Shown: one piece after another, positions 3,385 through 41,330 of the stretch
Layout of the letters: each line of letters opens with the position of its first letter
Numbering within the stretch: the first letter of the stretch is position 1
Assembly: GCA_043803105.1 (NCBI GenBank)
Contig: JAZDKJ010000006.1
Coordinates: 364,222-428,221, forward strand
DNA from: Candidatus Woesearchaeota archaeon
GTDB lineage: Archaea > Nanobdellota > Nanobdellia > Woesearchaeales > JAZDKJ01
DNA length: 64,000 nucleotides
Reading direction: 5' to 3'
Notes under the pieces: generated by a model
The model's database searches: none
Seen by the model: the letters and a program-made list of their open reading frames with translations, nothing else
Told to the model about the DNA's origin: nothing
Position numbers and translations under genes: made by a program

Positions 3385-5187
3385 TCAATATTTGTTTTTC
3401 AATACAAGTTTAGGGTAGATGCATAGTGACTTGAATTCGTCGAGCATCAATTTGAACGCATAGCTCAATTCGATATTGTTTATCTCCACATTCTCTCCGC
3501 AGACAGGGCAGTACTTCTTGTCCTTGTATGCGTCGTATATTGCAATTATTCCGCAGTTCTCGCAGACTGGTACGACTGTCTTGTCTGAGTCGAACCTTTC
3601 TTTGAGGAGTAATGATGCTCCGTGAGCCACAAAGGTGTCCTTTTCCATTTCTCCAAGCCTTAGGCCTCCCTCTTTTGCTCTTCCCTCTGTTGGCTGTCTT
3701 GTGAGCAGTTGTATTGGTCCCCTTGCTCTCGAGTGTATCTTGTTTGCAACCATGTGCCTTAGCTTGAGATAATACATGTTACCGATGAATATCTTTGCCT
3801 CGAACCTCTCTCCAGTCTCCCCATTGTACATGGTCTCTGTCCCATTCTCCCTGAAGCCAAGCCCGAGCAACTCCTTTCTTATGTCTGACTCTTTTTCTGA
3901 GCTGAATGTTGTTCCGTCTACGTATCTTCCTGCCAGTGCTGCAGTTTTTCCTGCCACTAGCTCAAGCAGGTGCGCTATTGTCATTCTGCTCGGTATTCCG
4001 TGCGGTGAGAATAATAGGTCTGGCACTATTCCTGATGCGCTGAATGGCATGTCAGCATGAGGCACGATTAGTCCGATTACCCCCTTCTGTCCATGTCTTG
4101 ATGTGAACTTGTCGCCTATCTCGGGTATTCTCTGGTCTCTTACCCTTACCTGCATGAGTTTGTTTCCCTCTTCGTTTTCTGTTATCAATACAAAGTCCAC
4201 TATTCCCTGCTCACCGTGCTTTAACGCCACTGAGCTCTCCCTTCTTGTGTTTGACGCTAAGCTATACTCATCCATGCCTGAGAGGAATCTTGGTGGGCTG
4301 GTCTTTCCTATGACAACGTCCTCTTCCTTGACTGGCGCTTCAGGGTATACTATTCCGTCAGGCTCAAGGAGCCTATAATCTCTCTCGCTCTTATAGCCCT
4401 TTACATCTTTGTTTGGTATGCAGACATCGTCCATTAGTCCGCCCGAATACCTGAGCTCTTCCGTTATTGATGGTCGATAATATGTGCTTCTTCCCATGCC
4501 CCTGTCTATCGATCCCTTGTTGATTATAATCGCGTCTTCCATGTTATAGCCCTTGTAGCTCATAACCGCAACAACAAGGTTTTGTCCTGCAGGGTGCTTG
4601 TCGTAGTCAGATATTTCGTGGATTATTGATTGCACGAGTGGCATCTGTGGTGTGTGCAGGAGGCTCACGTCCATGTCCATCCTTATGTCAAAGTTGGCAG
4701 CGTACAACCCTATTGCCTGCTTTTGGTTCTTGCTTCCCATGTTCAGCCTTGCTCCCTGGGTAAAGTTACCGAAGGGCACAAGCGCAACTGTTAGTCCGCA
4801 CATTGCCAAGGGTGTTATCTCCAGGTGGGTGTGTTCTGCTGTTACGTCCTCTGGCGTGAAGGCAACAAGGGTGTTCTCTTCCTCCATTGCATCCAGGTAT
4901 TCTATTACTCCTTGCTCTACAAGTTCCTTCCAGCCTATCTCCCCTTTCTGCAGCTGCTTGATGTGTTTTTCAGTTATGAGCGCTACTCCGTCCTTTACCA
5001 CGATTAGCGGCCTTCTTACCCTGCCCCTAAGGCTTTCTATTCTTACCTCGTCGATTTTGTCATTGTAGTATACGTTTACTGAGTCTGAGAGGACTCCCTT
5101 TCTTCTCTCTGCCTTTACCTGCTTTACAAAGTCCTCAGGATTATCGATTGTTCCCACATATTTGCCATTCAAAAAAACTTCGCTCAT
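3385..5187 (-). CDS. rpoB1: DNA-directed RNA polymerase subunit B' (C-terminal half of split RpoB)
   Basis: 600 aa with GIVPDLLFSPHGIPSRMTIAHLLE and a C-terminal Zn motif CPVCGE. It overlaps the rpoB'' stop. Confidence 0.93.
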   Translation of the reverse strand: MSEVFLNGKYVGTIDNPEDFVKQVKAERRKGVLSDSVNVYYNDKIDEVRIESLRGRVRRPLIVVKDGVALITEKHIKQLQKGEIGWKELVEQGVIEYLDAMEEENTLVAFTPEDVTAEHTHLEITPLAMCGLTVALVPFGNFTQGARLNMGSKNQKQAIGLYAANFDIRMDMDVSLLHTPQMPLVQSIIHEISDYDKHPAGQNLVVAVMSYKGYNMEDAIIINKGSIDRGMGRSTYYRPSITEELRYSGGLMDDVCIPNKDVKGYKSERDYRLLEPDGIVYPEAPVKEEDVVIGKTSPPRFLSGMDEYSLASNTRRESSVALKHGEQGIVDFVLITENEEGNKLMQVRVRDQRIPEIGDKFTSRHGQKGVIGLIVPHADMPFSASGIVPDLLFSPHGIPSRMTIAHLLELVAGKTAALAGRYVDGTTFSSEKESDIRKELLGLGFRENGTETMYNGETGERFEAKIFIGNMYYLKLRHMVANKIHSRARGPIQLLTRQPTEGRAKEGGLRLGEMEKDTFVAHGASLLLKERFDSDKTVVPVCENCGIIAIYDAYKDKKYCPVCGENVEINNIELSYAFKLMLDEFKSLCIYPKLVLKNKY

Positions 5188-6671
5188 TTGATTACCTTCA
5201 GCCCCAAGCCTTTGAGTGCCTTGAGCACCTCTTCCTCGTTTGTGTCTGCCGAGACGCTTGCGAGTAGCGCAAGGTTCTTTCTTAACCCTATATTTGTTCC
5301 TTCAGGTGTCTCGATAGGGCATAGCCTTCCAAGGTGGGTGCTGTGCAGCTCCCTTGCCGCAAAGTTCTCCTGCGAGGCTGAGAGCGGGCTCACCACCCTT
5401 TGCAGGTGCGAGACTGTCTCCAGGAAGTTTAGCCTCTGAATTCTTTGGCTGATTCCCTTCCTGCCGCCTACCCAGGCTCCTGTTGCCATCGAGCTGTATA
5501 TCCTCTGGGTTAATAGCTTGTCCCTGATTATCACTTTGATGCTTGGGAATTTTCCCCTCTTTACTATTCTCTGGAAATTGTATAGTAGGTCTCCGATCAG
5601 CACTTTAAGGTTTACCCTGAATAGGTCTGCCAATAGGTCTCCTGAGCACTTGAGCCTCTTGTTCTTGTAGTGGTCCTTGTCGTCTTCCTCTACCTCTCCG
5701 TTTGACACAAGGATATATTTCTTGAGCATCTTGCAAAGGTTGTATGCTTTGTATATTCTCTCTTCTTTTTTCATTCCGATATGGGGCATCAGGTAGCGGT
5801 CAATTATCTCGGTTGTTCTTTCGATCCTGATTTCCTTTGCTTGTGTTATGCCTATCCTTTTTGCTATGAAGTCTAATGCGTCTTCACTCGTCTTTATATC
5901 TGCGAAGCTGTATAGGTTCACGACCACCTCATCGAATTGCCTCTCCTTGGATACTGACTTCATTATATCTTCATCGTTCAGGAGGCCAAGTGATTTTATG
6001 ACGATTATTAACGGAATTCTCTTAACTCTTGTAAAGGACAAATAGAAGATTCCATCCTTCATCTTTTCCAGTGTATGAGGTATCTTGTAATACCCATGCT
6101 CTGAGAATAGCTTGCCTGTGTATTCCGAAACCCCAATGTTTTGCTTCTCCACCAAAAGTTGGTTTGATGCGAGGTCTTCGACATCGATTAGTACCTTTTC
6201 TGTTCCGTTGATTATGAAATATCCTCCTGGGTCATCAGGGTCTTCACCCTTTTCTATAATCTCGTCCCTTGACATGTTGTGCAGGTGGCAAAACTTGCTC
6301 CTCAGCATGATTGGTATTGAGCCAACCTGGGTTACAAATGATTCTCTCTGCACATCATTGATATGGGCGCTTACCTCGATGAAGCATGGGCTTGCATAAG
6401 TTATCTTTCTTAGTCTTGCTTCAACAGGGTATATTGCCCTCCTTGAGCCGTCTGCTTCTGTTATCTCCGGCTTTGTGAGCCATATCTTGTCAAGCCTTAT
6501 CTTGAACTTGTCGACATTGCTTGGGATTATTGTGGGCTCTATATCTTTGTTTTCTTCTATAATCTTCTGCAGCTCGTGCTCTATAAAATAATTGTAGGAC
6601 TCTATGTCTGACTTTATGAGGGAATAGCTTTCAAAATATTTTTGTATCAGCAATTTTGCAGTGTTAACCAT
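5184..6671 (-). CDS. rpoB2: DNA-directed RNA polymerase subunit B'' (N-terminal half of split RpoB)
   Basis: 495 aa. Position and similarity match the RpoB N-terminal region. Forms an operon with rpoH and rpoB'. Confidence 0.9.
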   Translation of the reverse strand: MVNTAKLLIQKYFESYSLIKSDIESYNYFIEHELQKIIEENKDIEPTIIPSNVDKFKIRLDKIWLTKPEITEADGSRRAIYPVEARLRKITYASPCFIEVSAHINDVQRESFVTQVGSIPIMLRSKFCHLHNMSRDEIIEKGEDPDDPGGYFIINGTEKVLIDVEDLASNQLLVEKQNIGVSEYTGKLFSEHGYYKIPHTLEKMKDGIFYLSFTRVKRIPLIIVIKSLGLLNDEDIMKSVSKERQFDEVVVNLYSFADIKTSEDALDFIAKRIGITQAKEIRIERTTEIIDRYLMPHIGMKKEERIYKAYNLCKMLKKYILVSNGEVEEDDKDHYKNKRLKCSGDLLADLFRVNLKVLIGDLLYNFQRIVKRGKFPSIKVIIRDKLLTQRIYSSMATGAWVGGRKGISQRIQRLNFLETVSHLQRVVSPLSASQENFAARELHSTHLGRLCPIETPEGTNIGLRKNLALLASVSADTNEEEVLKALKGLGLKVIK

Positions 6672-6906
6672 TTATCGCACATCTGTAATAGTATGATTCT
6701 CCTGCAGTGCTGCTCTTTCGCGTTATCTTGACGACATCTCTCGGCTTTAGCTTTAGATCAATTACCGCAGGATCCTTGATAAGTAGTTTTGGTAGTTCGT
6801 TCTCAGTAATGTGGAAATGCTCGAGCAGCTGTTTTTTTTCAGCCTCGCTAAGTTTTTTATGCTTAGGCACAAGAATGTGTTTGCTTATGTTGAATGATGG
6901 CTTCAT
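6664..6906 (-). CDS. rpoH: DNA-directed RNA polymerase subunit H (Rpb5 homolog)
   Basis: MKPSFNISKHILVPKHKKLSEAEKKQLLEHF...VVKITRKSSTAGESYYYR. I trimmed the start to the internal Met because the longer ORF (to 6960) overlaps the tRNA-Lys 3' end. Confidence 0.85.
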   Translation of the reverse strand: MKPSFNISKHILVPKHKKLSEAEKKQLLEHFHITENELPKLLIKDPAVIDLKLKPRDVVKITRKSSTAGESYYYRCAING

Positions 6907-6917
6907 TTTAGATTGAA

Positions 6918-7044
6918 TGGGCCGGACGAGATTTTCTTTGTTTTTTTTTCCAAGTTGCATTCGAACTCGCGACCACCTGATTGCTTTGCAGCTTAAAAGT
7001 CAGGTGCTCTATTGCCCTTATACTCCAGGCTGAGCTACCGGCCC
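6918..7044 (-). tRNA. tRNA-Lys(UUU), apparently with three introns (D-loop, canonical 37/38, T-loop)
   Basis: Minus strand GGGCCGG-TA-GCTC-AGCCTGG[+14 nt]AGAGC-A-CCTGA-CTTTTA[12-nt intron]A-TCAGG-TGGTC-GCGAG-TTCGAAT[28-nt insertion]CTCGT-CCGGCCC-A. The acceptor, D, anticodon and T stems all pair perfectly or with a single GU. Confidence 0.6.
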
Positions 7045-7059
7045 ATCGTGATTGAAAAA

Positions 7060-7225
7060 CGCCCTGGTCGGGACTTCCAACAACAGACATGCCGTATGAC
7101 ATTTTCAGCTGATTTGAACCCGAGTCGAAGCCTTTTTGCGGTAGCAAACAGTAATTCAACCCTCCCTCTGGTTGAAAAGCCACCTCGACAGGGCTTCATG
7201 ATAGGCCAGACTACACTACCAGGGC
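7060..7225 (-). tRNA. tRNA-Asp(GUC), with a canonical intron (~52 nt) and a T-loop intron (~39 nt)
   Basis: GCCCTGG-TA-GTGT-AGTCTGGCCTATCAT-GAAGCC-CTGTCG[intron]A-GGCTTC-GAC-TCGGG-TTCAAAT[39 nt]CCCGA-CCAGGGC-G. The D-arm resembles archaeal tRNA-Asp/Glu. Confidence 0.6.
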
Positions 7226-7432
7226 TTTGACCTAGTTAAGCCTAATTTAAGCTTTCTAGCCACCAAGCAGTCCACATAGGTCTTCTTAAGCGCATAGAAA
7301 GATTGAATTGGCATGGCCCACCTATCTTCACACCTGTTTATAAAGCTTGTGGTTTTTTCCTGACTTATTCAGGTCTGCTTGAACTTTTGCTTGATTACTT
7401 TCAAATGTTCTGCTCGAATTAAAGCGAGAATA

Positions 7433-7559
7433 TCCCCGAGGCCGGAGTCGAACCAGCAACCTTTCGGTAACGGCTGAGTGTTTTTCACATTCTGCACTGA
7501 GTGCAATATCAAAACACTATCCCTACAGCCGAACGCTCTAGCCATTGAGCTACTCGGGG
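7433..7559 (-). tRNA. tRNA-Tyr(GUA), with a 54-nt canonical intron
   Basis: CCCCGAG-TA-GCTC-AATGGCTA-GAGC-G-TTCGG-CTGTAG[54-nt intron]A-CCGAA-AGGTT-GCTGG-TTCGACT-CCGGC-CTCGGGG-A. The T-arm is nearly identical to that of M. jannaschii tRNA-Tyr. Confidence 0.7.
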
Positions 7560-7563
7560 AAGC

Positions 7564-7632
7564 TTTTTTCCTTAGGAAAAAACCTTGGAAAATATGTTTT
7601 TGCCAAGGCAAAAACGCTGCCTTTAAGGCAGC
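7564..7632 (-). terminator. Three stable hairpins with T/A-rich flanks between the leader element and tRNA-Tyr
   Basis: Plus strand: CTTTTTTCC-TTA-GGAAAAAA at 7564-7582, GTTTTTGCC-AA-GGCAAAAAC at 7596-7615, and GCTGCC-TTTAA-GGCAGC at 7616-7632. Confidence 0.4.
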
Positions 7633-7636
7633 TAAA

Positions 7637-7680
7637 GTTGCGAGCTGACTTTTCAGCTCAGCTATTGAGCTACTCAGGGA
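7637..7680 (-). ncRNA. tRNA-Tyr leader element: copy of the tRNA-Tyr 5' end plus a conserved hairpin
   Basis: Minus strand CCCTGAGTAGCTCAATAGCT matches the tRNA-Tyr 5' end at 18 of 20 nt. It is followed by GAGCTGA-AAAG-TCAGCTC-GCAAC. A TATA box (TTTATAAAAAG, plus 7707-7717) lies ~30 nt upstream. Confidence 0.55.
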
Positions 7681-7777
7681 TAATTCAATGAATAACAAAC
7701 AAGGGTCTTTTTATAAACATTTCTTATCTCTGTGTGTGCTTCTTTCTTCGGAACGACTCAGAATTTTGCTATTGCTA

Positions 7778-10156: not shown

Positions 10157-12328
10157 CTAACTTACCTCTGGCGCAACAAACTGTGAATAATCGTTAACTG
10201 TGTAATCTACCTGTTTTGTCTTGCCGTCGCAGTTATCATCGACAGTGATCTTTCCGCTTAGCCTGCTGCCATCAATGACTGTCTCAGTGATGCTGTTTAC
10301 CTCAAGGTTCTGGTCTGAGAGGAAATCCACCATGCAGTAGAATTTTATTTTGCTGCCCCTTAGGCTGGTTGCTTTCCATCCAAAGTTCCCGTTGCCAATT
10401 ATCCAAGGTCCTTCGTAGTTGGAATGCGTCAAGGGATTGTTGTCAAAGTCCACTGTCACTGTGTTGTCTCCTTCTTTATAGGTTGAGGGCTTTATGACCA
10501 CGTTGCCTTTGGCCAGCATTCCCACCCGATAGTTTCCGCTTCCTATTATCATGCTCTTCATTGTTGGGTATAGGACAGTAGGGTTTGCAGACGCCCCGTT
10601 TATTGATATTGTTATCTCGTCTTTTGGCCTTGGCTGGTAGCGTGTTTCCTGCAACATTTCTTCAGGTGTTTTTCCGCAGCTGCTTCGTAAATATCCATTT
10701 GTCAGATAATAGTTCTCCAGGAATTTTCTTGCAAGCACAAGCTCCACTTCAATGCTGTAATTCTTCAGTTTCTCCAGTTTGTATTCGCTTTTTACAGCAT
10801 CAACAATCGTGCTGTAACCTGCCTTCTGCAACTTAAGCTGGAGCCCTGCGCATTTCGGCAGCTTTAAGGAGGCTCTGCCGCTGGAGGCTGTCTCTCCTGC
10901 ATCGCATTCGTTGATTGTGTTGTTGCATTGGAATCTGACACCAACTCCAGGCAATAATCCTGTTTCATTCGTTGTGACTACACTAGCCTGCGTGCTTACG
11001 TTGTTGCAGTCAAAGACACTTTTCATGGTCTCGCTTCCGAAAAATGCTGTCAGGTTCACTTCGCTATATGGATTCTGTCCAGTGCACTGCCTGTTCTGGT
11101 TTCCGCACAGGAAGAGTTGCATCGGGAAATAAAACGAGAAGCCCTGTTTTTCCTGCACCAAATTACCAATAATCTTGGCAGAATCGCTGTCTGTGATTTT
11201 TATCACCACAGGATGTGTCAAGAAGTACTTGAACCTGTAATCATAAATGCAGAAGCTTGGGAGGAATGGTATGCTTGTCTGCGATTCCTTGTCCGGGCTA
11301 ATCACGTTGCCGCTTGTGGGTTTGATGTCAAATTTGTTATCTGATTGTGCAGGGTAACTGAATTCTACGCTTATTGAGCTAAGATTTTCGAAATAATTCC
11401 TGATAAAGCTGTCATAAACTCCCTGGACTGAAGCGTCGTTTGAAATCACTCTTTCAAACTTTGTTCCGGCCATCTTTAGGTATGGAAAATTTTTTGAAAG
11501 TATGCCTTCAAGATTTTCCTTGACTTCATCTTTCGTCCATGTTACGTATTTGCAATCTGTGCTTGAGTCAGAGAAGCTGAACGGCGGAAGGTCTTTTGCT
11601 CCCTTTTCTGCCCCGGTATAGCTGTACAGAGAAATCAGTGACTTTGCGTGGTCTTCAAGATAAGTGTCTGCAAACTCTCTTGTGACTAATTCCATAGCTA
11701 TCTCATGGATCAGCGCCAGGTTTACATCCACCTGATAATTGTAGTTGTCCACTTCATACTGTTTTTCGTTCTGTGTGATCTGGATTGGCCAGTGAAGATC
11801 AATTGTTGCCTGTTTGCCGAACCTCACTGTGGTGTTTATTGTTCCAGTCTTGATAACATAACTTTTTTTTCTGAAGACCTCAAAGTCCGTGCATCTCGGC
11901 AGGTTTTCTGTGATGTATCTAGCTAGCTCATTTTGCATGTAATCTGTTGAAGGTACAGAAATCGAATCTTCGGTGATCCAGTAAGGGACCTTGTTCTTTC
12001 CTGTGGCGTCAATAACCTGAATCATGCTCCCAGTTTTAACCACAGTCCTATCGCCGCTTATGCCTGTTGTTTGTAGCTCGGTAGGAATGTATATGAACCC
12101 CGCCTGAAGCCCAAGGATTTCTATTCCTGAATTTGCATAATCACTTAGACACTGTTCCACATATGTCTTAACCTGTTGAGCAGGCTCTGCAAGTTGTAAT
12201 GCCCTTACCTGTTCGACCTGGATTGGCTGCTCTGTTGTTCTTGCCCAGCTAAAGTAGAAGATTGCCGCAGCTATCAGCATGATTATTCCGATGATTATGA
12301 ATATGGTTATCTGTCCTCTTTTTTCCAT
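10157..12328 (-). CDS. large class-III signal peptide (archaeal type IV pilin-like) surface protein
   Basis: N-terminus MEKRGQITIFIIIGIIMLIAAAIFYF has a short basic n-region and an R-G|Q site followed by a hydrophobic helix, as in PibD/FlaK substrates. 723 aa. Confidence 0.5.
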   Translation of the reverse strand: MEKRGQITIFIIIGIIMLIAAAIFYFSWARTTEQPIQVEQVRALQLAEPAQQVKTYVEQCLSDYANSGIEILGLQAGFIYIPTELQTTGISGDRTVVKTGSMIQVIDATGKNKVPYWITEDSISVPSTDYMQNELARYITENLPRCTDFEVFRKKSYVIKTGTINTTVRFGKQATIDLHWPIQITQNEKQYEVDNYNYQVDVNLALIHEIAMELVTREFADTYLEDHAKSLISLYSYTGAEKGAKDLPPFSFSDSSTDCKYVTWTKDEVKENLEGILSKNFPYLKMAGTKFERVISNDASVQGVYDSFIRNYFENLSSISVEFSYPAQSDNKFDIKPTSGNVISPDKESQTSIPFLPSFCIYDYRFKYFLTHPVVIKITDSDSAKIIGNLVQEKQGFSFYFPMQLFLCGNQNRQCTGQNPYSEVNLTAFFGSETMKSVFDCNNVSTQASVVTTNETGLLPGVGVRFQCNNTINECDAGETASSGRASLKLPKCAGLQLKLQKAGYSTIVDAVKSEYKLEKLKNYSIEVELVLARKFLENYYLTNGYLRSSCGKTPEEMLQETRYQPRPKDEITISINGASANPTVLYPTMKSMIIGSGNYRVGMLAKGNVVIKPSTYKEGDNTVTVDFDNNPLTHSNYEGPWIIGNGNFGWKATSLRGSKIKFYCMVDFLSDQNLEVNSITETVIDGSRLSGKITVDDNCDGKTKQVDYTVNDYSQFVAPEVS

Positions 12329-29637: not shown

Positions 29638-29672
29638 GGGGCTGCGGGGGAGCTGCGAAGTCAGCTCGCACC
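29638..29672 (+). ncRNA. tRNA-Pro(UGG) leader element: copy of the tRNA 5' end and flank, plus a conserved hairpin
   Basis: GGGGCTGCGGGGGAGCT matches the tRNA-Pro 5' end at 15 of 17 nt. The repeat extends about 17 nt into the 5' flank, about 29 of 36 identical overall. It is followed by GAGCTG-CGAAGT-CAGCTC-GCACC. Confidence 0.55.
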
Positions 29673-29710
29673 TTCGTGGGACATAAAGTCCCCCTGACAT
29701 CACAATCAAT

Positions 29711-29827
29711 GGGGCTGTGGGGTAGCTTGGTCTAGCCTATCTGGTTTGGGGCAATGCAAAAAACCAGATGACCCCGGTTCGAAAGTTTTATAAAAGGCTG
29801 ATTAACTCGAAAATCCGGGCAGCCCCA
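29711..29827 (+). tRNA. tRNA-Pro(UGG), with a 12-nt canonical intron and a T-loop insertion of about 30 nt
   Basis: GGGGCTG-TG-GGGT-AGCTTGGTCTA-GCCT-A-TCTGG-TTTGGG[GCAATGCAAAAA]A-CCAGA-TGA-CCCGG-T-loop plus insertion-CCGGG-CAGCCCC-A. Confidence 0.6.
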
Positions 29828-29977
29828 CTCATGTTCGTGGTTGGTCTTCCCAATGGGAAGACGCACCCTTTAGGGTGCCGATGCAGTCAACAGGCATTTC
29901 TGTTGATCCGGGCCGCCCCCACTCAGTTTTGTTGGCTAAAAACATGGGAAAACGCTGCACAAAGGGCAATTCGCAAA

Positions 29978-39094: not shown

Positions 39095-39400
39095 GTCAGG
39101 GATTTTCACTTGATGAGATTTGAACTGTCAGAAATTCACTGAATTTCTGAGCATGCTCGGAAACATAGTTTCCGACACCTGGAGACCTGTGATGGTCAAT
39201 TGCTTTTCAGGCAACCGCGATACCCGATTACGCTAGCCCGGCCTCGCACATTTCTAAATTGACCTGAACCTTAATATGTTCAATTGAGAATTTTCCGTAA
39301 GTTCTGCGACAAAACCGAGCAAAATCTTATATACCAGAATGCTTACAAACTTTATGACCTGCGATTTAATTACCTGATTACGCGAGCCCTTTTTATATAG
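39095..39400 (-). repeat. tRNA-derived fragments: two direct copies of GGGCT(C/A)GCGTAATC(A/G)GGTA, the second continuing as a tRNA-Phe(GAA)-like 5' half
   Basis: Minus strand, copy 1 begins at 39388 immediately after ACTATATAAAAA. Copy 2 at about 39247 folds as GCCGGGC-TA-GCGT-AATCGGGTA-TCGC-G-GTTGC-CTGAAAA-GCAAT. No matching 3' acceptor strand was found. Confidence 0.35.
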
Positions 39401-39452: not shown

Positions 39453-39654
39453 TGGGGCTGCTGGGATTTCCATGCTTCTAGGACGGTCTTTTGGCATCAG
39501 CCAAAAGCCTTTTCCCAGGTTTTTGCATATTGCAAAAAGCTGTTTGGACCCAGATTAGGAGGTTTTCCGCTGAAAACCTTAGGTCAAATGCCCCGAACCT
39601 CCAGTGATAGTTTCTCGAAGAGTTTCTCTCTTCTCCAAGTTACACTACAGCCCC
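39453..39654 (-). tRNA. tRNA-Pro(CGG), heavily interrupted (D-loop, canonical 37/38, and T-arm/variable insertions; 202 nt)
   Basis: GGGGCTG-TA-GTGT-AACTTGG[about 25 nt]ACTATCAC-T-GGAGG-TTCGGG[28 nt]A-CCTCC-TAAT...CTGGG...[insertion]...CCCAG-CAGCCCC-A. All four stems pair. Exact intron boundaries in the 3' half are uncertain. Confidence 0.5.
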
Positions 39655-41183: not shown

Positions 41184-41290
41184 GTTGATTGTTATTGTTT
41201 CGCGAAGCTCACAAGAAACCTGATAGTTTCTTGGGAGTCCCAAAAAACTTCAAGTTTTTTGTGACGAAAGGCGACTGAAAGGAGTGTAAA

Positions 41291-41330
41291 GGTGCCAGCT
41301 GACTTCTCAGCTGAGTAGCACTACAGCCCC
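41291..41330 (-). ncRNA. third copy of the leader element: tRNA 5'-end copy plus conserved hairpin
   Basis: GGGGCTGTAGTG-CTACT-CAGCTG-AGAAGT-CAGCTG-GCACC. An AT-rich box (AAATTTTTTAAG) sits about 30 nt upstream. It is followed by the AAAAAAC-TTCAA-GTTTTTT and GAAAC-TATCAG-GTTTC hairpins, then the tRNA-like copy at 41183. Confidence 0.5.

Follow-up and report, generated by a model that had tools for sequence, protein, structure and literature searches.

The closest described counterparts of the genes considered here are the multi-intron transfer RNA (tRNA) genes of Thermoproteales and other Crenarchaeota (Sugahara 2007/2008, as summarized in the review PMC4090602). In this review, 20/21, 30/31 and 59/60 are listed as known non-canonical positions of archaeal introns, and relaxed forms of the bulge-helix-bulge (BHB) splice motif, hBH and HBh′, are linked to broad-specificity endonucleases. 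The review also cites intron transposition in Thermoproteales (Fujishima 2010), the mechanism of which is given there as unknown. In Caldiarchaeum, a tRNA fragment and an intron were gained through integration of a mobile element (Sugahara et al., 2012; PMC3293823). As for DPANN archaea, a survey of the tRNAs of several genomes, including one from Woesearchaeota, linked tRNA splicing endonucleases (EndA) having an L3 loop to markedly increased disruption of tRNA genes (Kaneta et al., 2018; PMC5829648, Figure 7), and the incomplete tRNA sets of DPANN genomes point to undetected disrupted genes (PMC5829648). Here, we describe five interrupted tRNA genes within 64 kb of contig JAZDKJ010000006.1 from a Woesearchaeota archaeon (hereafter the window, to which all positions refer). 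Their insertions are very probably BHB introns. We also describe a two-hairpin module found beside tRNA genes of the window and, elsewhere, inside tRNA introns.

As far as the summary in the review goes, the window genes and their orthologues resemble the crenarchaeal ones in having one to three short introns per gene, in the positions used (20/21, 30/31, 37/38, 59/60), and in relaxed hBH motifs that make use of a neighbouring tRNA stem. Unlike Thermoproteales, the host is a DPANN archaeon with about 44% GC and a split rpoB, and its EndA is expected, as a prediction, to be of the alpha4 type with an L3 loop (PMC5829648). Since heavy disruption of DPANN tRNA genes was already reported, the multi-intron tRNAs of the window belong to a known kind (PMC5829648). 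That survey relied on tRNAscan-SE and a single Woesearchaeota genome; the present comparison adds, for about 50 orthologous loci, the exact positions of introns, the covariation of their BHB motifs and their turnover.

Standard searches detect little of this set. ARAGORN in default mode found no tRNA in the whole window, and with its intron search (-i) the sole call was a Tyr(gta) gene with an intron of 54 nucleotides (nt). At the gathering score, Rfam gave a single tRNA, at 7559..7433 on the minus strand (54.6 bits, with a 57-nt gap in the anticodon loop). A scan for T-arm and acceptor patterns recovered the Lys, Asp, Tyr and Pro(UGG) genes, all with a standard UUCRA T-loop; it missed the Pro(CGG) gene because the T-loop of the latter is UCCAAAU. 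Introns were placed with a spliced aligner, which compares mature tRNA with the genome at a flat cost per long gap. Once the insertions are taken out in silico, ARAGORN accepts each of the five sequences as a regular tRNA of 73-76 nt bearing its expected anticodon: Lys(ttt), Asp(gtc), Tyr(gta), Pro(tgg) and Pro(cgg). Standard finders overlook four of these five genes of the window. Where a DPANN genome is scored as 'lacking' some tRNAs, these may just be encoded by multi-intron genes, and such hidden genes bear on inferences of completeness and auxotrophy.

For BHB scoring, exon positions a-5..a-2 were paired with intron positions b-5..b-2 (central helix H), the bulges being a-1, a ↓ a+1 and b-1, b ↓ b+1 (the arrow marks the splice site), and the outer helix h was taken to begin at a-6:b+2. 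The tRNA-Lys(UUU) gene (7044..6918, minus strand; 127 nt, 74 nt when spliced) has four exons, 7044-7025, 7011-6994, 6981-6960 and 6931-6918, by spliced alignment and ARAGORN. Its D-loop intron at 20/21 (7024..7012, 13 nt, AGTATAAGGGCAA) gives H = GCCU/gggc with all four pairs and bulges GG↓a and aa↓U. Its anticodon-loop intron at 37/38 (6993..6982, 12 nt) gives H = CUUU/aaag, again 4/4, with the anticodon stem as h; this score was reached by none of 300 shuffles. In the T-loop intron at 59/60 (6959..6932, 28 nt), H = UUCG/agaa has three of four pairs and h is the T stem. The initial annotation had proposed these three insertions, with sizes that hold for the anticodon loop and the T-loop; that in the D-loop, put at about 14 nt, is 13 nt long. 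The tRNA-Asp(GUC) gene (7225..7060, minus strand; three exons, 166 nt, 75 nt when spliced), also established by spliced alignment and ARAGORN, carries a 52-nt intron at 37/38 (7185..7134; H 3/4, with 6 bp in both h and the inner helix h′) and a 39-nt T-loop intron at 59/60 (7112..7074; H = UUCA/ugga, 4/4). Spliced alignment returned the two sizes that had been announced from inspection alone.

The tRNA-Tyr(GUA) gene (7559..7433, minus strand), found by Rfam, ARAGORN -i and spliced alignment, contains a single canonical intron at 37/38 (7522..7469), the central helix of which is imperfect (C-g, U.c, G-c, U.g); its 54-nt length, seen by both ARAGORN -i and spliced alignment, is the one first proposed. 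The tRNA-Pro(UGG) gene (29711..29827, plus strand; spliced alignment and ARAGORN) has, as anticipated, one canonical and one T-loop insertion, of 12 nt at 37/38 (29751-29762) and 30 nt at 59/60 (29784-29813) by spliced alignment, with H=4 in both. A second proline gene, tRNA-Pro(CGG), had been signalled at 39453. The gene is real and its insertions are exactly three, but it reads on the minus strand, from 39654 to 39453 (202 nt), and not as that coordinate suggested. Its acceptor halves GGGGCUG and CAGCCCC look identical from either strand. Read on the plus strand, the alignment is meaningless, with eight 'introns', whereas the minus strand gives a clean gene with introns of 22 nt in the D-loop (39633-39612), 28 nt at 37/38 (39591-39564) and 76 nt at 59/60 (39542-39467). 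Written with intron lengths in brackets, it is GGGGCUG UA GUGU AACUUGGA[22]ACUA UCAC U GGAGG UUCGGG[28]A CCUCC UAAU CUGGG UCCAAA[76]U CCCAG CAGCCCC A. No split or permuted arrangement was seen among the five genes, all exons of which are colinear within 117-202 nt.

Script scoring gives a complete central helix (4/4) for the Lys D-loop and 37/38 introns, the Asp T-loop intron, both Pro(UGG) introns and the 37/38 and T-loop introns of Pro(CGG), and 3/4 for the Lys T-loop, Asp 37/38 and Tyr introns. The remaining one, the D-loop intron of Pro(CGG), scored 2/4 with its first boundaries; the 4/4 helix CUUG/cgag, obtained with the adopted 22-nt boundaries, is a reading by hand. Among the insertions the inner helix h′ is frequently missing or offset, so that most motifs are of the relaxed hBH kind.

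The same geometry recurs among orthologues. H=4 was found in 21 of 27 scored Lys D-loop introns and in 9/9 Lys introns at 30/31, while at least three pairs were found in 17/17 Lys introns at 37/38 and 22/22 in the T-loop; for Asp, the corresponding counts (H>=3) are 14/16 in the D-loop, 18/19 at 37/38 and 27/30 in the T-loop. Altogether, about 140 orthologous introns average 3.3-4.0 central pairs, against 1.4-2.0 for shuffled introns. Compensatory changes occur in the T-loop helix (UUCG/cgaa, UUCA/ugaa and UCCG/ugga) and at 30/31 (CACC/ggug and CAUC/gaug). Orthologous Tyr introns of 48-61 nt retain the sequence cagcYgNN↓A. Seven introns that the aligner put in the 38/39-44 region fit poorly (H<=2) and are taken as boundary artefacts of the aligner.

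The initial annotation had also pointed out that T-loop insertions end with G(G/A)AA(A/G)U, and this ending is indeed present in 49 of 52 orthologous T-loop introns. It follows from the splice motif. The intron strand pairs there with U54-U55-C56-R57 to form the central 4-bp helix, and the 3′ bulge comes next: GAA pairs with U54-U55-C56, the next two nucleotides and U60 make the 3′ bulge, and the T stem serves as outer helix.

Two side observations concern the tRNAs themselves and their introns. In the Pro(CGG) T-loop UCCAAAU (39543-39549, minus strand), C55 replaces the near-universal U55 (pseudouridine 55); a C55-containing Lys T-loop, UCCGAAU, is seen in L006, L009, L014, L025, L029 and L030 (compared loci are numbered with the letter L). 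Where such tRNAs have a T-loop intron, the intron compensates, ugga pairing with UCCG or UCCA. Tyr introns, including that of the window (7469-7522, minus strand), keep internal boxes (C)UGA ... RUGAUGA around a small hairpin. The pair is also present in L016, L019, L033, L034, L037, L043, L046, L055 and L096, examples being CUGAC ... GUGAUGAUGG in L034 and AAGAC ... GGAUGACG in L046. The resemblance of these boxes to a box D′/C′ kink-turn (k-turn) suggests a possible L7Ae-binding site.

By comparison of its RNA polymerase subunit B″ (RpoB″) and aRF1, the host is assigned to Woesearchaeota (DPANN). A search of the species-genome collection with RpoB″ gave 62 loci, every one from DPANN; the closest are labelled Candidatus Woesearchaeota (L001 with 86% identity, the following ones with 76-77%), and the top relatives in the large protein collection have 91, 88 and 86% identity. 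The split rpoB that had been claimed for the window is borne out by Pfam, the Rpb2 domains being divided over two open reading frames (ORFs): 5184-6671 holds domains 1-3 (B″) and 3385-5187 holds domains 4-7 (B′). The gene order Tyr-Asp-Lys-rpoH-rpoB″ is kept among relatives.

In more distant relatives, Lys and Asp genes without introns are detected by ARAGORN at the corresponding place. The spliced Lys sequence of the window is nearly identical to the uninterrupted Lys genes of L024 and L005, and the spliced Asp sequence to the uninterrupted gene of L027. By spliced alignment, the 51 Lys genes scored have 0, 1, 2 or 3 introns in 10, 13, 18 and 10 cases, the occupied sites being the D-loop at 20/21 (28), 30/31 (9), 37/38 (17) and the T-loop at 59/60 (22). 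Likewise, the 47 Asp genes have 0, 1, 2 or 3 introns in 9, 14, 17 and 7 cases (D-loop, 16; 37/38, 23; T-loop, 30). Across both sets, exons are almost invariant and introns vary freely in length and sequence. The nearest relatives, L096 (91% RpoB″ identity), L097 (88%) and L100 (86%), have the same Lys and Asp sites filled as the window, with respective lengths of 91, 14 and 15 nt for the Lys D-loop intron, 12, 12 and 15 nt at Lys 37/38, 29, 12 and 13 nt in the Lys T-loop, and 52/87, 51/25 and 49/31 nt for the two Asp introns. Intron lengths range from 12 to 135 nt among relatives with 86-91% RpoB″ identity. L001 lacks the Lys 37/38 intron, and the Pro(UGG) orthologue in L101 carries the same two introns as the window. 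Judged from these alignments, 20/21, 30/31, 37/38 and 59/60 are recurrent intron sites with a fast turnover of length and sequence in the clade. In the approximately 50 orthologous Tyr-Asp-Lys loci, nature provides a closely spaced record of introns gained, lost and resized at four fixed sites. It sets limits on the recognition requirements of the Woesearchaeota endonuclease, namely a 4-bp helix and one tRNA stem, usually without h′.

We therefore regard it as very probable that the insertions are archaeal BHB introns, spliced by proteins, at the canonical position 37/38 and at the known non-canonical positions 20/21 and 59/60. Each tRNA gene would be transcribed as one long precursor, in which the final nucleotides of an intron would pair with the four exon nucleotides located just upstream of the 5′ splice site. 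This pairing would create a 4-bp helix between two 3-nt bulges, extended by the adjoining D, anticodon or T stem. EndA would then cut both bulges, and the exons would be joined by an RtcB-type ligase. EndA cleavage, ligation and the need for a broad-specificity EndA are what we infer from this scheme.

Several points weigh against such a reading. Splicing itself is deduced from sequence. Only three of four central pairs are present in the Tyr, Lys T-loop and Asp 37/38 introns, and, taken individually, Tyr (p 0.31) and Lys T-loop (p 0.14) do not differ significantly from shuffles. The D-loop intron of Pro(CGG) fits the BHB motif only with boundaries moved by hand. Moreover, most motifs have no adjacent h′, and a strict alpha4-type enzyme is therefore not expected to cut them. 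The EndA of the host is not among the Pfam-scanned ORFs of the window, and a tblastn search with Methanocaldococcus jannaschii EndA gave no match in the window or the compared loci.

Alternatively, the interrupted genes could be decaying pseudogenes, or could retain their insertions as expansion segments, functional tRNAs being encoded elsewhere. The failure of ARAGORN and Rfam to report four of the five genes would agree with this, as would the presence in the window of genuine tRNA debris, that is, partial copies of tRNA ends, the incomplete gene X and a Phe-like gene for which no 3′ acceptor strand matches (all described below). Yet, among the orthologues at this locus (51 for Lys, 47 for Asp), exons stay near-invariant while insertions vary freely in length and sequence; the sequences form perfect cloverleaves once spliced, and the insertion ends covary with the exon in a way that preserves the BHB helix. 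Also, one gene per tRNA is normal in archaeal genomes (PMC3293823). Decay or retention is, in our view, very improbable. Even less credible is self-splicing of a group I-like type, or another endonuclease-independent route as in tRNA genes of Patescibacteria: group I introns are known in the tRNA genes of bacteria with small genomes (PMC13011429) and also in archaea (PMC6125680), but the present insertions of 12-76 nt are much too short for any group I core (>200 nt, P3-P8), match no Rfam intron family in scans of the window and have junctions of BHB geometry.

A second feature of the window links tRNA genes to a conserved structured sequence. Degenerate copies of the 5′ end of the downstream tRNA precede tRNA-Tyr, tRNA-Pro(UGG) and the incomplete gene X. 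After every copy comes a common 24-nt sequence, (G/C)AGCUGnnAAGUCAGCU(C/G)GCA(C/A)CUU, which has three matches in the window against 0.03 expected. The tRNA-end copies are damaged (G18->A in the Tyr copy, U8->C in the Pro copy) and the 24-mer is intact. It is part of a module made of a first hairpin (hp1, CAGCUGnnAAGUCAGCUG), GCACCUU and a second hairpin (hp2). Upstream of tRNA-Tyr, the unit (7679..7615, minus strand; 38.3 bits with the covariance model introduced below) starts with a degenerate copy of Tyr positions 1-20 (7679-7660); its module comprises hp1 GAGCUGAAAAGUCAGCUC, GCAAC and hp2, and more hairpins with T/A runs extend down to 7560. The unit upstream of tRNA-Pro(UGG) (29638..29695, plus strand; 34.2 bits) begins with a copy of the leader and positions 1-13, and that upstream of gene X (41330..41288, minus strand; 31 bits) with a copy of positions 1-12. 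A unit of another type lies downstream of tRNA-Pro(UGG) (29828..29925, with the module on the minus strand), adjoining a copy of the 3′ end of the gene. Read on the minus strand, it consists of the reverse complement of this 3′-end copy, an hp1 variant CAACAGAAAUGCCUGUUG, GGCACC and hairpins. As a side remark, the Asp T-loop intron begins with uCAGCUGAAAAuGUCA, the likeness of which to the module was judged by eye only.

When metagenome contigs were scanned with the 24-mer, 30 loci were obtained, nearly all adjoining tRNA genes. In an alignment of 17 copies, hp1 is a 7-bp stem, and hp2 combines an inner stem and a conserved internal loop with an outer stem that covaries. In this alignment 93% of the cells are paired and 10 pairs are changed on both sides, values that none of 500 shuffles reached and for which slid controls gave 26-49%. 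A covariance model (R1) finds the three copies of the window (31-38 bits) and extra diverged metagenome copies, and it matches upstream of tRNA-Tyr in the close relatives L096 and L097. In 62 more distant Woesearchaeota loci it found no copies save one weak match. A search of viral contigs gave three matches, in unrelated-looking sequence and without tRNA context. Hammerhead, k-turn and C/D readings of the module were tried and none fitted. The module has no Rfam family match, and limited literature searches returned no description of it; by these searches it is new and previously undescribed.

Three contexts can be distinguished. In the first one (context A), the module stands in sense orientation at the 5′ end of genuine BHB introns: 11 T-loop introns of 82-94 nt from different tRNAs (H 4/4 in nine, 3/4 in two) and two D-loop introns from metagenome contigs. 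In L077, L086, L087 and L091, inspection by eye indicates complementarity between the 3′ part of the intron and a portion of hp1, a pairing by which the intron would be closed. In context B, a copy of the leader and of tRNA positions 1 to about 12-25 is followed by the module, then by 37-135 nt and the complete tRNA. In context C, read along the module strand, the reverse complement of a copy of the T-loop, T stem and acceptor 3′ strand, with a few trailer nucleotides, is followed by the module, a spacer and the reverse complement of the complete tRNA. The duplicated tRNA-end segments measure 12-63 nt, and hp1 faces the distal copy in every B and C case examined. In the window, the module is found only outside introns. 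Tandem arrays also occur, with two units in L081 and two in L073, the latter with different module variants. Upstream of tRNA-Tyr in L096, three tandem units have hp1 stems that differ from one another by compensatory changes (CAACAG...CUGUUG, GAGCUGA...UCAGCUC and GAGCGUA...UACGCUC).

Because of context A, the module is a conserved intron family common to different tRNAs and positions, and it behaves like a mobile intron family. In this it resembles the type of Fujishima 2010, as that work is cited in PMC4090602, since one intron family with the hairpin module occupies different tRNA species and positions (D-loop and T-loop). Within the limits of that citation, it differs by its sequence family and lineage, by the covarying two-hairpin structure and by its presence outside introns, beside duplicated tRNA ends. 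The locus of tRNA-Pro(UGG) gives an indication on polarity. In the close relative L101/L102, the orthologous gene has both introns and no units, with a TTTATAAAT box that precedes +1 by 24 nt and a start codon of L37ae that comes 7 nt past the 3′ end. Owing to this absence, the Pro(UGG) units are most simply lineage-specific insertions with target duplication, one outgroup giving an incomplete polarisation.

As the most likely reading, though with modest confidence, we propose that a small mobile element of Woesearchaeota-like archaea, acting at the DNA level and targeting tRNA genes, has the module as its conserved part. Landing in a D-loop or T-loop with a splice-competent junction, it would be tolerated as a BHB intron. 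Landing with a 12-63-bp duplication of a terminal segment of the gene, it would be a harmless insertion in the leader or trailer, and tandem pile-up would be possible. If this were true, the duplication-flanked units would be intermediates of archaeal tRNA intron gain or loss caught in the act, and a mechanism unknown since intron 'transposition' was described in 2010 would be addressed. Being conserved, covarying and multi-copy, the module offers a testable handle on the movement of BHB introns between tRNA genes.

An alternative, also tentative, is that the units are scars left where an integrase inserted plasmids or viruses into tRNA genes (attL/attR; Sugahara et al., 2012), unrelated to intron mobility. 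As at integration borders, direct repeats of a tRNA 5′ or 3′ end flank the insert (PMC3293823), and they extend 0-24 nt past the tRNA end. The tandem arrays in L073, L081 and L096 and the absence of the Pro(UGG) units from a close relative also fit integration. Caldiarchaeum is similar in this respect: there as here, the intact gene is preceded by a partial copy of its tRNA 5′ end, which forms a direct repeat around the insert. However, the Caldiarchaeum insert has 1.8 kb and codes for a recombinase, whereas the inserts with the module have just 37-135 nt, without ORF or recombinase, lie at both gene ends, are multi-copy and have a hairpin in common. No integrase is found among the Pfam-scanned ORFs nearby in the window, where the neighbours are housekeeping genes. 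Furthermore, at least 13 tRNA genes have the module within a bona fide BHB intron and show no repeat there, and one module beside many tRNA species would need a separate attP for each.

The units might instead be functional leader or trailer RNAs. The upstream unit of tRNA-Tyr (7560-7679 in the window) is kept in L097 (2060-2184) and triplicated in L096 (1641-2062). Each of these units contains four hairpins, with compensatory changes between their stems, as well as T5-T6 runs. The sole TATA-like box (TTTATAAAAA, 7709-7718) lies 30 nt upstream of the distal copy of the Tyr unit. Such a box, together with hairpins and T5-T6 runs, makes a discrete RNA of about 75 nt conceivable. The units may thus be expressed as RNAs of this size carrying tRNA-end sequence, and the real tRNA-Tyr may need another promoter. 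Two other readings have less in their favour. Relics of intron loss through a complementary DNA (cDNA) copy of a spliced transcript are disfavoured, as the duplicated segment in L078 retains an unspliced T-loop intron and as the close relative has neither units nor intron at the sites of the Pro(UGG) units. A role of the upstream copies in split tRNAs or trans-splicing is rejected, the copies being degenerate and the adjacent genes complete.

Two incomplete tRNA-like genes are also present. A tRNA-Phe(GAA)-like gene (39242..~39090, minus strand) has a good 5′ half, GCCGGGC UA GCGU ... CUGAAAA ..., followed by apparent T-arm insertions. Its 3′ end ACCGGGC pairs with the 5′ acceptor strand at 5/7 positions, and no 3′ acceptor strand pairing at 6/7 positions or more was found. 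About 150 nt upstream, its 5′ part recurs as a degenerate copy (39355-39395, minus strand). The gene may be a pseudogene or belong to a more complex arrangement. Gene X (41183..~41068, minus strand) has a Pro-like 5′ part, with the first 20 nt as in Pro(CGG), a 37-nt D-loop insertion and a UUGAGGA loop (anticodon loop UUGAGG+12 nt), GAG being one change away from GGG. Neither a T arm nor a 3′ acceptor strand could be recognised in it. We treat it as a fragment, probably of a Pro(GGG)-like gene in decay.

Two minor observations concern the genomic setting. An Rfam match to SNORD29, C/D-box-like, at 11905-11968 (plus strand) lies within a large ORF and reaches 31.4 bits for a gathering score of 48 (E=0.03); it is probably due to chance. 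At 6664-6918 (minus strand), only 11 nt (6917-6907) separate the 3′ end of tRNA-Lys (6918) from the start codon of rpoH (6906), and rpoH overlaps the start of rpoB″ (6671). The tRNA cluster and the RNA polymerase operon may be co-transcribed, and the same tight packing of tRNA-Lys, rpoH and rpoB″ is present in relatives.

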